From NCBI GenBank assembly GCA_964016885.1, contig OZ024740.1:203236001-203300000 (forward strand): DNA of 64,000 nt, in the 5' to 3' direction. This DNA comes from Eledone cirrhosa (taxonomy: Eukaryota). Below are positions 3,591-57,368 of this stretch, in pieces (the stretch's first letter is position 1; each line of letters starts with the position of its first letter). The notes under the pieces were generated by a model. It was not told the DNA's origin and ran no database searches. It worked only from the letters and a program-made list of their open reading frames with translations. Position numbers and translations under genes: made by a program.

Positions 3591-3916
<326 letters not shown>

Positions 3917-3951: not shown

Positions 3952-3998
<47 letters not shown>

Positions 3999-4002
<4 letters not shown>

Positions 4003-4551
4003 GATAAATCTACCAAGAGTTTACGGTAGTGTCCAATCCGTATGAAGAACTCAATGTAATCCGGATATCATGGAAAGAAGAGATGCAATGAAAAATCACT
4101 TTCGGTGAAAGATAAACGGAATACAGAGTCAAGATAAAATATTAAAAAAATAATGAATAAAACAATGAAACAGTTCCTTATATTAAACAAAAAAAGTTCA
4201 TTATTTAACGATCGTTTCTAGGATATATATGTGTTAGAATTGGCATGCATATTCAACAGATCTATGTACAAAATTATACAAAATTATACAAACTATCAAA
4301 ATTAAATATACATACCAACACATATATATGCCGTCTTCAGAATTCTGAAGACGGCATATATATGTGTTGGTATGTATATTTAATTTTGATAGTTTGTATA
4401 ATTTTGTATAATTTTGTACATAGATCTGTTGAATATGCATGCCAATTCTAACACATATATATCCTAGAAACGATCGTTAAATAATGAACTTTTTTTGTTT
4501 AATATAAGGAACTGTTTCATTGTTTTATTCATTATTTTTTTAATATTTTAT
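3999..4551. mobile_element. Fold-back PLE end 2: spacerless 418-bp palindrome (4134-4551) plus tail, flanked by (TA)n
   Basis: Centre ..GTCTTCAGAA|TTCTGAAGAC..; the ORF track gives identical peptides on both strands; each arm has CTGAAGA-long stem-GAAAC GATC GTT. Confidence 0.9.
4343..4484 (+). ncRNA. Hammerhead-like motif with extended stem II (mirror copy on minus strand, about 4201-4342)
   Basis: CTGAAGA cggc atatatatgtgtt..aacacatatatat ccta GAAAC GATC GT T; palindromic stem III ACGATCGT; stem I truncated by the inversion. Confidence 0.55.
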
Positions 4552-4565
4552 ATATATATATATAT

Positions 4566-5957
4566 GCAAAAGTTCTATTTAAATTGTTGGGATACAACAA
4601 GCAAATATTATTATAACTGATATAAAGCACTCGACAAATATTTGGAGTAGATATACAATATTAATAAATGGAAACTATATTTATAAAACCATATTTATTT
4701 CATTATATATATTTCAAGGATACCAGGTAAAATCATGGTATGCCTTCATCAGACAAAATACAATATATAACAGTTTTACAAATAGATATTGACGTACCCT
4801 TTCAAAAAGGTGACCGGTGCTTTTGGAGGCCATCCGGATAGTGGTTTGTTTACTTTAGTAAGTCATAGTGTTAAGAGTAAGTAAAAAGAGTAAGTACGGC
4901 TTATGTATCTATATGTGTGTGTTGACATACATATACATGTGTTATATGTTTTTTTTTGTGATTATATGTCTGTCTGTATATATGCATGAGTGACGCGTGT
5001 ATACCAATTGAAGATGCACACACATATCTATTCATGTATAGCTAAGAATTATGGGTGTGAATGTACAGGCTTACACATGCAGCTTTTGATTGCAGATATG
5101 CATAATTTAACAGCCATAAATGCAGAAAAGTTAATCCTATATATTTATATATATATACTAAAATGTGTTAATTAATAACACAGGGAATGTATAGCAATAG
5201 ATAAAAAATCACTTATGCTTTGTATGTATACATTATGTGCGGGAGTAGATATAATGTGTATTTTCTGAGTGAGTGAGTATATATATATATTTATGTATCT
5301 TTGCCTATGTATATGTGATATACGATAGATAATCTCTCTAGCAATATATATATTTTATAATGTTAAATTCCAATTTTTAATATATTGATCTCAATTTTTA
5401 AACTAAATATATAATCATAATTAAACAATGTGTAATTTCTCATATTATATATCTATATTCCATTCACGAATATTAATATTTCTAATTTTATTTATTCATT
5501 TCATCTCAATTGTTAACTCAACTTTATATGACATAACTTAAGGTTTTCGTTCTCTCCCCCCCTCTATCTATCTCTACATATCTCTCTCTTGAGTTCTTTC
5601 TCTGTCTGATGTTTTGATATCTCCCCGTTATTTTTCCTCTGTTCTCTTTTCTTTTTGCTTTCTTCTTTTTCTTTATCTATCTTTCCCTTTCTTTTCTCCA
5701 CGTTTCTCTCTCTCTCCATCTTTTTACTTACTCTTAACACTATGACTTACTAAAGTAAACAAACCACTATCCGGATGGCCTCCAAAAGCACTGGTCACCT
5801 TTTTGAAAGGGTACGTCAATATGTATTTGTAAAACTGTTATATATTGTATTTTGTCTGATGAAGGCATACCATGATTTTACCTGGTATCCTTGAAATATA
5901 TATAATGAAATAAATATGGTTTTATAAATATAGTTTCCATTTATTAATATTGTATAT
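4566..5957 (-). mobile_element. Fold-back PLE derivative 3: 239-bp inverted arms (4651-4889 and 5719-5957), ~830-bp spacer, tail 4566-4650
   Basis: Two mismatches found between arms by eye; both outer ends abut (TA)n; each arm carries a hammerhead motif. Confidence 0.85.
5848..5912 (+). ncRNA. Type I hammerhead ribozyme candidate (mirror copy 4696-4760, minus strand)
   Basis: tattttgt CTGATGA aggcatacca..tggtatcctt GAA ATATATAT A atgaaata: intact core, stem II, palindromic stem III, 8-bp stem I with G-U pairs. Confidence 0.65.
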
Positions 5958-5973
5958 ATATATATATATATAG

Positions 5974-10806: not shown

Positions 10807-11001
10807 TATAGATTTGGGGCGTGTCCGTATCAACTATTCGTTCCTTATCATTTTTTAATGGGTCAAATCCCCCTCATGATTTCACCCATTAAGAGAATAT
10901 CATAAAAGTAAGTTTAATATTATATCGTAGACGATATCAATATAGTTATAAGAACACCCCCACAAGAGAGCACTAACAAATATGATTTAGAACGTAGCAC
11001 A

Positions 11002-12030
11002 ATGGAAAGCATCCAGCAGATAGCTAATTCCATACACCAGAGTATAACTGTAACTATCGACTACTCTTCCAAACACCCTAACAATAGACTACCTGTATTA
11101 GACACGGAACTCTGGATTAACACTATAGACGAAAGAGCCCAAATTCTCCACTCACACTTTGCTAAACCCATGGCCTCCAAATACCTGATACTCAAAAACT
11201 CAGCAATGTCCAGTAGTGCTAAGTTTAATATTCTGATCGCAGACTTAGTACGAGTGATGAAGAACGTGTCCCGCATGTGCGATCCAACAGAAATGGAAAG
11301 ACACATCCAACACTTCATCAACCGCATGCAGTTCTCTCGCTACAACCAAAGAGACAGAATCAGAGTATACGAAGGAGCCACGGAAAAGTATAAGACCCTC
11401 ATAGAACTGGACATGAAAGGAATTTGCCCATTATACAGGAGCAAATCATGGAATAGCTTAGATAGGACTATACATAAGATAGGGAAAACCACCTCATGGT
11501 ACGACAACCAGAGATACCAGAGTGTCATGTTTGTGGACGCTACCCCTGGAGGGAAATTAGCTAACCAGTGTAGAAAGGCCCTGAGAAAGACCCACTTAAA
11601 GATTAAGGTGGTAGAAAAGCCAGGAACCACCATAAAATCCCTGATCAGCAAAACCTACCCTTTTAAGAAAACCCACTGTACTAATAGGAAATGTATTATA
11701 TGTAAGGTAAACCCCCGGATAAACTGTAAAACTAGAAATGTAGTCTATAGCATAAGATGTACAGAGGTTACTTGCAGAAACATGACAACAACATACATAG
11801 GCGAGACAGCTCGTAGCATAGGTGAAAGGATAGACCAACACTGGGGGGAACTAAAAGGCCGAAAAAACGGTTCAGTACTATACGAACACGCCAGACAACA
11901 ACACGACGGTAACATAGACAACATAGAAATTAGAATAATATCTAAACATAGAAATGACCCAGCAGATAGGCAAATCAGAGAGGCCAGTGAATTAGAACTT
12001 AGAAGGCCAAGGCTAAACAGAAAAAAATGA
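11002..12030 (+). CDS. PLE polyprotein fragment (RT C-terminus/thumb, Zn-finger linker, GIY-YIG endonuclease); open frame extends upstream to 10918
   Basis: 342-aa uninterrupted ORF; the stop falls after an A7 run where loss of one A would restore LNRKNEW. Confidence 0.85.
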   Translation: MESIQQIANSIHQSITVTIDYSSKHPNNRLPVLDTELWINTIDERAQILHSHFAKPMASKYLILKNSAMSSSAKFNILIADLVRVMKNVSRMCDPTEMERHIQHFINRMQFSRYNQRDRIRVYEGATEKYKTLIELDMKGICPLYRSKSWNSLDRTIHKIGKTTSWYDNQRYQSVMFVDATPGGKLANQCRKALRKTHLKIKVVEKPGTTIKSLISKTYPFKKTHCTNRKCIICKVNPRINCKTRNVVYSIRCTEVTCRNMTTTYIGETARSIGERIDQHWGELKGRKNGSVLYEHARQQHDGNIDNIEIRIISKHRNDPADRQIREASELELRRPRLNRKK

Positions 12031-45248: not shown

Positions 45249-48200
45249 ATGGCCAATATAAGAGTTGGATGTCCTGGAAACAGGGCAAACTCTTAAATGA
45301 CCTCAGGTCGCACAGAGTGGATGTAATGGTTATTTGCTAGTCCAGGATCAGCAGCGAGCGCCAACTGGCCCCCATCTTCGACGACTTTGAGATCTACGCA
45401 ATTTCTCTGTCAGCCGAGGGGTGGGGTGGGGTTGTCGTTCTGCTGCGAAAATACCTGGGTCTTGCCACACAGAAGGTACACCTGGACCCGGAGGGTCGAC
45501 TGGTGGTTTTAGACGTCGGCAGTCGTGAAGGTGGAGCTTTCAAACTGGTGGCAGCGTATGCCCCATCTGGGACACCGCGACCGGACTTCTTCCGACGCCT
45601 GGAGAATTTCCTGGGAACGTCTCGCTCCTTGCTTTTAGTGGGGGACTGGAATGGTATCCTGGATGCACGTTGGGACTATGTAGGGGCATGTTCCGATAGA
45701 GGGGTGTAACAGCCTCAAACGATTAATCGGCCGATTTGATCTGGCCGATAGATATCGACTAGATTTTCCGACTGTGCTACTGTGGACGTGGACTAATGTT
45801 AGCGGAACATCTAGGTCGTACCTAGATAGGTTCCTAGTTAGAAATAAGGATAGGGACATATTAAGCTGTCCACGAATGTTCATGGTTGACTATTCGGATC
45901 ACAAGTTGGTGACCGGAGTGGTCAACCTTGATAGAACTCATAGACAGGGACCCGGTTACTGGAATCTAAACTTGTCTTTACCGACAAACAAAGCTTACAG
46001 TAAGCGGATTAGCACACTAGTTAAGCAGCGTTTGACGGGGGCAATTGTCAACAGCAGGTGGTGGGGCTCTCTCAAGAGAGAAATTAGAATATAATCGATA
46101 GGTTTTAGTCGGGAATTAGCATCAGATAGGAATAGAACTGAAAGGGAATTAATAAATAGAGTAGAAGGGGCGATTAGGAGTGGCAACGTGGCCGGCGTGC
46201 TGGCGTCAAGAACGGCCCTAGACCAGTTATTTGATGCGAAGCACGGGGGCTGCGTTGTCAGGAGTAAAATACGTGCTCTGAGTAACGAGGGAGCCAAAGC
46301 TGTTAGCTGGGCCCGAGTGACAGAGGCAAAAAGTGGAAACAAATCCACGATTCGGTCTTTGAAGGACCAGGATGGACGCGTGATCCTTGAACCTGAGCGG
46401 ATGAGCGCGGCCTTTCAACGGCGCTTTGCACGACTGTTCGGGGGGGGGGGGCATGGATTTCGGTCCATACCTCGACGGTCTGGCGCGGCTCTCGGACGGG
46501 GAAGCGAAGTCCTGCGAGAGGCCGATTTCAGCCGCTGAAATAGGGGAAGCGCTGAGCCAATGCGGCAAACGCAAATCTCCGGGTCTCAATGGTCTACCAT
46601 ACGAACTTTATGTAGCGATGCTGGGCTTGTTCTCCGGTCTCCTCGAGGCGTTCTACTGCAACTGGCAACAGAACTGGAGAATTTCCAGTTCTGTGACCAA
46701 GGGCGTAGTCACGCTGGTGAGGAAGGACGAGAACAATGGGGATGACATAGATAACTTCAGGCCCATAACTCTGCTAAACACAGAGTTAAAGGTTTTGGCC
46801 AAGGTGTTAGCGAAGAGGTTGGCGCTTGTCGTCGGGAACCTGGTGGGAGAGGCGCAGACATGCGCAATCCCGTCCAGGTCCATACACGACAACCTCCACC
46901 TCATGCGATACATCGTAGAGAGGGTAGGGAACGAACCCGGCTTTGGTGGAGCCTTGATCAACTTGGAACAATCTAAGGCGTTCGATAGGGTTGACCATCG
47001 GTACCTGGATGCGGTGCTCGCGGCGGCAGGCTTCGGACCCGTTTTCAGGGGCTGGATTGCTGCAATGCACAGCAGCAATACCTGCTCGAGGGTCAAGGTG
47101 AATGGCTACCTCTCGGAGCCGTTCCAAATCACGCGATCCATCCGACATGGATGCCCTCTCTCCTCCCACCTGTATGTGCTGGCTCTCGAACCACTACTGC
47201 GGAAGCTGGAACTGTTGCAGGGCATCCCCTTGGAACCGGGATTGCGGAAAGCGGTGTCGGCCTACGCCGATTACGTGACAGTAATGGTGTCGTGCGCCTC
47301 GGAAATCGGGCAGATCGGCACCTTACTGGAGGAATATGAAAGGTTCACAGGAGCCAAGCTGAACCGGGACAAGTCCGTCGGTTTGCAACTCGGGACGTGG
47401 AGGAGCAAAACGATGGACGGAGGGACCGGTGAAGCTGCTCGGGGTCTGGTTCGGACCGGACCTCCAGGTGGAGAAAAACTGAGACGAGGTAACGGGCAAG
47501 GTGTTTGCACTGGCCCAGAAGTGGGCCGAGTGCAAACTATCCCTGAAAGGTCGAGCGGAGGTGGCGAACGCTTATATAGCGTCCGTCATCTACTACCGCT
47601 TGACCGTCGTGCCTTGCCCAGAGAAAACACTCGCCAAAATGGAGCGCGCACTCTTCCGATTTCTTTGGAAGAAGCGGGCTCCTTTGGTGAGAAGATCCAT
47701 CTGCTCTCAACACCCTTCGAACGGAGGGCTGGGGATGCCGTGGCTGACGATGCGTAGACACGCATTAAGGCTACGGCACCTCCAGGTATTCCTCACCGGT
47801 CAGCCGGTGTGGGCCCTGTTTGTGAGGCGAGCCTTTCCGAGACTCGTCTCACTCACCGAGCTGCAATCCTGGGTCAAGCAAAGACCGAGAAAAGTGGGCG
47901 ACTGGCACATTGAATGTGCCCAGGCGCTCACGGCCCTCTGGCAAGCGGATCCGGCAATCAGTGGAGACTCAACCTCAACATTCTATAGAGGGTTGGTGTG
48001 CGCAGTAAGTGCGACGACGCTCTCGGAGAGGCTCTGGGCATGGAGGGAGATGAGCTGGCCAGTCTGTTCGGTAGGACATTTGGCTCGGGATCGATGGACA
48101 ACTTCCAAAAGTCCCTGGCTTGGCAATGTTACCGAGGAGCTCTACCCGTTCGGGACAAGCTCTACAGACACGGGCGCCCGGGTAGGGACCCCTCGAAGAA

Positions 48201-48620
48201 GATCTGTCCGAGATGCGTGCGTGACGAGGAAACCGTCGCACACGCATTCGTACACTGCCCGGGCGTTGCTGACCTGTGAGGCTATGTGGAACGACTACTG
48301 TCGCGGGTGGGACCAATCCGGTTGACCACCGAGAACATTGTCACCATCAAACCGCCTCCCCCTTTCAAAAATGAAGGAGAGGCGGTTTTCCTCTGTGTGA
48401 TAGCTATGGCGAAAGAAGTTGTATGGTGGACAAGGTTGAAAGGGCTGAGGTCAGACACCTATCTCTCCGGCCAACAACTGGTCTTTTTTTTCAAGTACCA
48501 CTTTAGAAGAAGGATCAGAATGGAGAGAGAGGTGCTCTACCCCAGCAAGTTTTATGAAAGGGGGTGAAAGTAGCTAGAATGGCCCGAGTGAATGGGCCTT
48601 CTCTCTATATCAGCCTGTAG
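45249..48620 (+). pseudogene. LINE ORF2 (APE endonuclease, RT, C-terminal Zn finger), disrupted
   Basis: LVGDWNGILD, SYLDRFLV, SDHKLV, KSPGLNGLPYE, NFRPITLLN, KAFDRVDH, RHGCPLS, AYADYV, GGLGMP, CPRC..ETVAHAFVHCP; in-frame stops, frameshifts and YADD>YADY. Confidence 0.93.
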
Positions 48621-55804: not shown

Positions 55805-56760
55805 TTCCTTGAATCTCAGTCATTGATGTTGGTCAACTGGAAAGTCCGTTGGAATGAATATCAAGCCACTACCTGCAGCCTCAGATATTCAGGACGTATC
55901 GGAGGGTTCTTGCTGTTCCAAGCAAGCATGCCTTTTGAAGCGTTCCAAAAAGCGTGAAGGGGCCGATTTTCTTTAACCATCCCTGGAAACTTTTGGAGAT
56001 AGTCCCCAGTGCGCCTATGACAATCGGGATCACTTTGACTTCATGGCAGTTCCAAATCCTTTTCACCTCCCACTTTAGGTCCTGGTATCGGTTAATTTTC
56101 TCCCTCTCCTTCTCTTGCACTCTCGTGTCGAACGGGCAGGCCACATCCACAATCAGACACGATCTTTTTTCCTTGTCCACAACCACCAGGTCAGGTCTAT
56201 TGTGTTCCAGTTTTTTGTCCGTCTGTATCCTAAAATCCCACAGCACCTTCACCTGATTGTTCTCCACCACCGCCTCCGGCCTATGCTCATACCATTTCTC
56301 AGAATGTGGTAAATTGTTTACTTTGCACAGGTGCCAGTGGATCACCCTGCCCATCACATCGTGTCTCCAGCCCTTATAGTGGGTCTGGGCTAGGTGTTTA
56401 CACTCGGACACAATGTGAGCCACAGTCTCCTCTCTCTCTCCACAGATCCTGCACAGTGGGCTAGCCTCCTCCTTGTAAATATGGTGCTTCAACCACTTCG
56501 TTTTGAGGGCCTGCTCCTGCGCAGCCATTATCATTCCTTCTGTAGCCTTTTTGAGGTCTCCTCTTCTCAACCAGTTCCATGTCTGTGGATCTCTAAATTC
56601 AGTTTTCTCAAAGAAGGTACTATGAAGGGATTTTCCCTTAAGGCTGCTCTTCCTCCTTGATGTTATTTCCTCCTTGGACATCCCCTGGCCTACTGTCCCC
56701 TCCTTCAGTACAGTTTTGAGCATTGGCTCCTTACTATAGGTCACGTATTTGTATAGGTTG

Positions 56761-56762
<2 letters not shown>
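55805..56762 (-). mobile_element. 5'-truncated R4/Dong element inserted in (TAA)n; intact C-terminal frame 55881-56744
   Basis: LKKATEGMIMAAQEQ, CRIC..ETVAHIVSEC, RHD, LWDFRIQTD..HNRPDLVVVD..IVDVACP..EKINRY; (TTA)n on both flanks. Confidence 0.93.
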
Positions 56763-56807
<45 letters not shown>

Positions 56808-57368
56808 TGATTGGCAGTATCGGTAGAGAGTCGGACACCATATTTTGCAGCATAGAGTTACGGCCCTTTATGATCTGAGTTCAAATCCCGCCGAGGTTAA
56901 CTTTGCCTTTCATCCTTACGGGGTCGATAAAATAAAGCACCAGTAACGTACGGCGGCGGCGATGGTGGTAATGGTGGTGGTGGTGGTGGTGGTGGCGGCG
57001 GCGACAGTGGTGATGATGGTAATAACAACGATGATGACAATGGTGATGATGGTGATGATGACTGACAATGGTGATGCTAGTGATGATGGTGATGATGGTG
57101 ATGACAACAAAGGTGATGATTTAAAATCAAAACCAAAAAGATATTCACCAGAATAACATCATATTTATTTATAAATAAGGAATATATTACATCAAATATT
57201 GGCACACTTGATTAAATGTGTGATTTGGCTCAGTATATTACTGGTACTTCTTGATTTTATTGATTTTTTTAATCATAAAAGGCAAAATAACCTAAAACAT
57301 TTAGTTCAAACAAGAGACATTTTATTTGGTTTCTGTTGGAGTGTTTAGGTTATGGAGACTACTAAAAT

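Follow-up and report, generated by a model that had tools for sequence, protein, structure and literature searches.

In the window, by which we mean the whole 64,000-nt stretch of Eledone cirrhosa DNA analyzed here (assembly GCA_964016885.1, contig OZ024740.1, positions 203,236,001-203,300,000, forward strand), positions 4000-4551 hold a 552-bp insertion with (TA)n at both sides. It contains a palindrome with its axis between 4342 and 4343: the arms 4134-4342 and 4343-4551 are reverse complements at 209 of 209 pairs, with no spacer between them. Exact comparison thus bears out the spacerless 418-bp palindrome (209 + 209 bp) that an earlier note on this DNA had called apparently perfect. Pairing ends at the first position past the 209-bp arms, and the runner-up palindromes of the window are 43-bp simple repeats. 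The left arm extends 134 nt further (4133 to 4000) as element sequence on the minus strand, giving a 343-nt tailed arm beside a 209-nt short arm. Judged by its sequence, the insertion is a head-to-head stub of a high-copy, Hydra-like Penelope-like element (PLE); this copy has no ORF. Its parts are listed below, with element positions counted from +1, the 5' wall described in a later section.

4000..4551, no strand: whole insertion, a head-to-head PLE stub with a 343-nt tailed arm and a 209-nt short arm; same layout at 57 of 57 complete palindromic loci
4000..4133, minus strand: 134-nt tail (element +215 to +348), on one arm only, ending at putative RT start site A; in the family, tails are 133-135 nt and are followed by (TA)n, and in ORF-bearing copies the sequence continues into the 5' UTR
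4134..4342, minus strand: left arm, pseudo-LTR (pLTR) +6 to +214, from the exact palindrome comparison
4343..4551, plus strand: right arm, pLTR +6 to +214, ending at putative RT start site B, from the palindrome and the comparison of family arms
4341..4344, no strand: junction AATT, compared with family centres
4345..4488, plus strand: predicted type I hammerhead motif, from core boxes and constrained folding
Parts of the plus-strand motif: CUGAAGA 4345-4351; long stem II rod; GAAAC-GAUC-GUU 4467-4478; stem I 3' strand 4479-4488; predicted cut after 4478
4197..4340, minus strand: mirror hammerhead motif, predicted cut between 4206 and 4207
3955..3999, no strand: (TA)n target, left flank, read from the sequence
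4552..4565, no strand: (TA)n target, right flank; a second hammerhead-bearing family starts at 4566

The hammerhead was assigned from its core sequence and constrained folding; Rfam returned no hammerhead at the gathering score. CTGAAGA begins at 4345, 2 nt past the axis, and GAAACGATCGTT occupies 4467-4478; the predicted cut lies 136 nt from the axis. The native motif of the family has a 10-bp stem I (TTCATTATTT/AAATAATGAA), a stem II rod of ~110 nt, a stem III of 2 bp whose loop is palindromic, and GUU as the cleavage triplet, together with an extra C after A9 and two extra bases (UA) ahead of GAAA, the latter unusual. The constrained hammerhead fold of this native motif comes to -43.3 kcal/mol against an MFE of -46.5 kcal/mol, a cost of ~3 kcal/mol. 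In the window copy, 5 nt are missing from each arm; stem I is therefore down to 2 bp, the forced hammerhead fold reaches -34.0 kcal/mol against an MFE of -43.0 kcal/mol, and the ribozyme is predicted to be inactive. The minimal type I hammerheads of metazoan PLEs, as described in the part of PMC4209133 consulted, have in common with ours the CUGAnGA and GAAA boxes, a base after A9 and a short palindromic stem III, whereas the long rod, the UA before GAAA and the GUU triplet set the predicted motif apart; the same source reports opposite-strand hammerhead pairs 100-700 bp apart in Schistosoma.

By eye, the long ORFs of the window are repeats and transposon fragments. The (TA)n that bounds the stub on the right is shared with a second hammerhead-bearing element (4566-5960). 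Its inverted arms measure 242 nt and are separated by 829 nt, a tail of ~80 nt is found on one side only, and CTGATGA..GAAA occurs at 4752 on the minus strand and at 5856 on the plus strand. A 111-bp imperfect hairpin element (3624-3734, 94% self-complementary) adjoins (TA)n and has a shorter relative at 19592-19659. Further along lie a 370-aa ORF fragment with a GIY-YIG-like end (YIGETARS; 10918-12030, plus strand), probably of another PLE family, ~16 kb of satellite arrays with tri- and hexanucleotide units, in which several frames are open (19660-36100), and fragments that by eye resemble non-LTR retrotransposon ORFs (46405-48325 and 55881-56867).

The element family and its stubs

The family is abundant. 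Counted as exact-pattern matches across the 3.0-Gb assembly, a 29-mer from the ribozyme 3' half has 4,915 copies and a 27-mer at the end of the short arm has 6,553. Three long copies (L053, L046 and L055) have an ORF that, counted from its first Met, encodes 813 aa, and their proteins are 97-99% alike. We recognized in it RWR (37), DKT (115), MGS, YRDD and the CxCX5C linker CNCRNKANC (673), followed in the C-terminal part by a GIY-YIG-like core (IVY..SYIG), CRLC (CxxC, 771) and CNH (CxH, 799). The CX2-5CxxC motif is absent from this ORF. As to the CCHH motif, which Hydra-clade endonucleases lack, two cysteines lie inside the GIY-YIG core but are not arranged as CxxC, as read directly from the sequence. 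Pfam gave no significant match for four ORFs, and the RT and GIY-YIG assignments are by motif only. The layout of L053 is pLTR-ORF-pLTR, with pLTRs ~7.1 kb apart and the tail continuing into the 5' UTR, and inverted pLTR pairs are found in L046-L064. The 3' region of the element (L053:3490-7630) is ~4 kb long and microsatellite-rich, far longer than described for Hydra elements. We rejected a non-LTR retrozyme, since the arms are head-to-head and part of an ORF-bearing element rather than tandem head-to-tail units of a noncoding repeat.

The assignment to the Hydra clade is a motif-level call. Set beside the description of that clade in section 11 of PMC8557442, which includes Hydra-1_Obim, the family shares the GIY-YIG-like C-terminal domain, DKT, the CxCX5C linker, CxxC and CxH near the end, the hammerhead and (TA)n insertion. 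It differs in having RWR where the clade has RWK, and a unit of ~7 kb where the clade is generally below 3 kb, in a comparison with the published description. Published insertions of endonuclease-bearing PLEs, as covered in the parts of PMC8557442 and PMC3846280 used here, have the same head-to-head pLTRs, junction palindrome, one-sided tail, microsatellite target and pLTR hammerhead as ours; their tails are 30-40 nt long, against 134 nt in this family. Inverted pLTRs that are truncated at the 5' end, meet in a palindrome and have a tail on one side are already published; the present analysis adds to them the position of the wall across the genome, the excess of G and the non-overlap test.

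Genome-wide, 852 loci have two cores head to head with a spacer of at most 30 nt, and the insertion target across family loci is (TA)n. We compared the arms at 68 such junctions, a nonrandom sample in which both arms were complete in 57. All 57 combine one tailed arm with one short arm (56 by script and one with a one-letter variant), and in 31 the arms are identical; such a palindrome is thus neither rare nor a chimera. Differences between arms average 1.7 within a locus and 11.7 between loci. Some pairs differ at 5-11 positions, and one at 24, maybe an alignment effect. Palindromes therefore persist and age in place, and strong homogenization of the arms was rejected as a general rule. The earlier note had called long perfect palindromes usually unstable; hundreds persist in this genome, some with drifted arms. 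The same note suggested that a transcript through the palindrome would be dsRNA and a likely ADAR/Dicer substrate; if transcribed, the palindrome in the window would fold into a very stable hairpin, predicted at -315.5 kcal/mol, and may be such a substrate.

The arm of the window locus is identical to that of 3 of the 56 other complete palindromes compared, which together with the identity of its own two arms supports a recent retroelement insertion, in line with the earlier note. Its AATT centre (4341-4344) is unique genome-wide, at 1 of the 19 loci with a spacer of at most 6 nt; the junction is blunt, with no microhomology and no extra G, and both arms stop 5 nt short of the family's 5' wall. 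Hence an axis 2 nt from the hammerhead core is true of the window locus and does not hold as the family norm, this being the sole AATT centre among the 852 junctions. The commoner centre is AAATTT (9 of the 19 loci); AATT equals AAATTT minus its central AT, and loss of that AT would also give the blunt centre seen in the window. Most likely, the window copy is ordinary debris of an active family, an inert by-product. Elsewhere, four separate loci (G000:C1:13231957, 99311358, 236608027 and 250991983) share the non-native centre AAATAAAGATTATTT, a recurrence that, on sequence grounds, suggests a reproducible joining path after an added G. Another palindrome (L062:1100-1924) consists of four arm segments, with the same junction present twice at a distance of 268 bp; it has apparently duplicated its own centre.

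The 5' wall and the extra G

Comparing the axis across family copies, we found that its position is nonrandom. The arms tend to end at a wall, the A of ATTATTT (+1). This A lies 3 nt inside the 10-bp stem I, with CUGAAGA following 7 nt downstream and the predicted cut ~140 nt away. The distribution of ends was obtained by exact-match counts on the first 100 short-arm anchor matches on contig C1, 83 of which keep the core. Upstream of CTGA, 17 of these 83 arms end at 7 nt, 5 at 6 nt, 8 at 5 nt, 6 at 0-4 nt and 5 at 11-21 nt; none ends at 8-10 nt, and 42 read through at least 30 nt upstream of the core. The clustering at 5-7 nt (30 of 83) has a binomial p of 2e-40, the arms being not fully independent. 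Snap-back through stem I predicts ends 10 nt upstream of the core, and was rejected with 0 of 83 arms there.

The wall is particular to this family and does not coincide with the cleavage site, given that the second hammerhead family (from 4566) has none and that few junctions lie near the cut. In that second family, the 25 close junctions (an absolute count) are diffuse, fall mostly on TATA microhomology and show no such G; hence we reject the general rule of an axis at the ribozyme core. Near the predicted cut of the first family, we counted 21 junctions genome-wide against the 852 at the 5' edge; in 4 of the 21 both arms start no more than 1 nt from the cut, and 6 lie on the stem III palindrome. 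These, L275 among them, give a faint hint that cleaved RNA is sometimes used as template.

The base ahead of +1 in native copies is C. Genome-wide, 1,730 arms end at +1 with a non-native preceding base and 340 end one base downstream (+2); at -1 there are 134 matches with the native C followed by a non-native base, where a chance T as next base goes uncounted. G precedes 428 of the 1,730 ends at +1 (25%); at +2 it does so in only 29 of 340 (8.5%), a difference with a Fisher p of 1e-12, and at -1 in 6 of the first 100 among the 134 matches. A subfamily SNP was rejected as the source of the G: in the first 30 G contexts, the letters upstream are never the native ones. The partner arm can explain 13 of these 30 G contexts and does not explain the other 17, against 6 of 30 unexplained for A/T contexts. 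At two junctions, G stands on both arms.

Taken together, position and base composition suggest that +1 is probably a capped transcription start inside stem I. The TCATT context at +1 resembles an Inr consensus, and no DPE was seen by eye at +28 to +33. In a sample enriched for stubs, the five arms that extend into the ORF all read through +1, and of the 191 arms that start at or after +1 none reaches the ORF; we counted this against +1 as the start of the protein-coding mRNA. In native copies, AATAAA lies 8 nt upstream of the wall. The Drosophila Penelope transcript begins within the upstream pLTR, from an Inr/DPE promoter, according to the part of PMC2377424 consulted. An untemplated G at full-length L1 and SVA 5' ends has been attributed to cap copying (PMC3287187, in the part consulted). 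In both cases a minority of insertions have a single G ahead of a first base whose position is fixed, whereas the G described here lies at PLE cDNA-cDNA junctions, as judged from counts only.

Origin of the two arms

The best explanation, to which we assign a probability of about 0.65, is that two reverse transcripts, begun at two fixed internal sites at the two ends of one break, reached the fixed, probably capped 5' end of the RNA and were joined. The endonuclease would cut (TA)n, and two target-primed cDNAs would start at +348 (site A) and +214 (site B), by analogy with the anole element discussed below. Both would run off the capped RNA 5' end at +1, where copying of the cap would add the extra G; their ends would then join through AT/TA microhomology, as blunt ends or with short inserts, and the window copy would have lost 5 nt per arm at or after joining.

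We examined 30 head-to-head pairs on contig C1 up to 74.18 Mb, including loci from junction-biased searches. All 30 have one tailed and one short arm. The short arm reaches at least 15 nt further 5' in 11 pairs and the tailed arm in 3, and in 8 pairs the arms share no sequence at all, the tailed arm beginning downstream of the short arm's end. If one cDNA copied itself, the short arm could not extend further 5' than the tailed arm. The 11 pairs break this rule, and fold-back cannot yield the eight whose arms share nothing. Of the first 50 junctions, 44 could be typed as microhomology (27), small inserts (14) or blunt (3), and among the 44 all 12 spacerless perfect centres fall on AT or TA. Junction types and centres fit two cDNAs, one started at +348 and one at +214, whose ends were joined.

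That a single cDNA folds back at or near the ribozyme and primes itself was the suggestion of the earlier note ("cDNA folded back at the ribozyme"), and self-priming on an antisense template is also how the part of PMC3846280 consulted interprets PLE palindromes. The far greater likeness of arms within a locus than between loci speaks for it, but one source RNA predicts this equally well; zero-loop centres on 2-nt self-complementary words fit the annealing of two ends and not a priming loop. The counts here favor two independent cDNAs ending at a fixed 5' point over that published interpretation. As a general rule, fold-back is refuted by the non-overlapping arms, and the placing of the fold at the ribozyme is not supported either: the predicted cut is 136 nt away from the axis, only 21 junctions surround that cut while the 5' edge has 852, and the second family has no wall; overall we consider this reading improbable. 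It is possible at any single symmetric locus, the window's included, and an opened hairpin could yield the blunt symmetric centre found there. Least probable of all, in our judgment, is that the axis marks hammerhead self-cleavage: the four junctions with both arms at the cut might reflect rare cleaved templates, but position refutes it for the window locus, the genome-wide counts lie elsewhere, and in vitro the insertion of an anole PLE did not need hammerhead cleavage (PMC11167929, as far as covered).

Two joined cDNAs are also compatible with a wall that is not a capped start but an RT stop or a processed end, made by the structure of stem I or by 3'-end processing after AATAAA. The wall does sit within the 5' strand of stem I, with AATAAA just upstream in native copies, and ORF-bearing copies do pass through +1. 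On the other hand, it lies 3 nt inside the stem rather than at its edge, the 8-10 nt positions at that edge hold none of the 83 ends, the G excess is particular to +1, and the second type I hammerhead family has diffuse junctions and no such G among its 25; we regard this reading as unlikely, though the least so of the alternatives. Very improbable, finally, is a library fold-back chimera or assembly error. The exact centre is unique in the genome and coincides with an EcoRI site, and no contig or RAD read matched at least 31 letters on both sides of the axis. Yet the point at which the symmetry ends is precisely the family's site B, and the two flanks are different. In a chimera the flank would be mirrored too, and a tail on one side only could not arise. 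Weak evidence against an artefact also comes from two X3 contig words, of depths 21 and 65, that extend past the axis by 3 and 2 letters respectively; these may come from the source sample. A small error in the central letters of the window locus is possible.

The reading as two joined cDNAs has its closest experimental likeness in the Poseidon element of Anolis (PAc), for which in vitro work (PMC11167929) describes two internal RT starts bounding the tail, cleavage and extension of both target strands, AT-rich targets and a dispensable hammerhead cleavage. PAc belongs to another clade, and cDNA-cDNA joining, a fixed 5' end and an added G are not described in the parts of that paper covered. 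A wider proposal, to which we give slightly less than even odds, is that twin target-primed synthesis makes the inverted ends of PLEs. The palindromes would then be strong-stop-like cDNA pairs off a capped transcript from stem I, and the extra G would map the PLE promoter to the base. As arms from +1 never reach the ORF in our sample, the template may be a short capped pLTR RNA, with stubs breeding stubs in a SINE-like manner. A literature search that extended to papers outside subscription, and thus not to subscription papers such as older PLE reviews, found no paper on a cap G, a non-overlap test, twin priming or strong-stop for PLEs.

The statistics of this family bear on how PLEs make inverted pLTRs and on what the hammerhead does. 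The in vitro study established two start sites and two-strand extension, and left later steps open in the parts covered (PMC11167929); the non-overlapping arms, the AT/TA-centred junctions and the cap-like G lead to sharp predictions, namely that the RNA 5' end is capped at a single base and that the two cDNAs are independent. Moreover, at least several hundred near-perfect 400-bp palindromes in one genome offer a test set for palindrome stability and, if the palindromes are transcribed, one for dsRNA editing as well.
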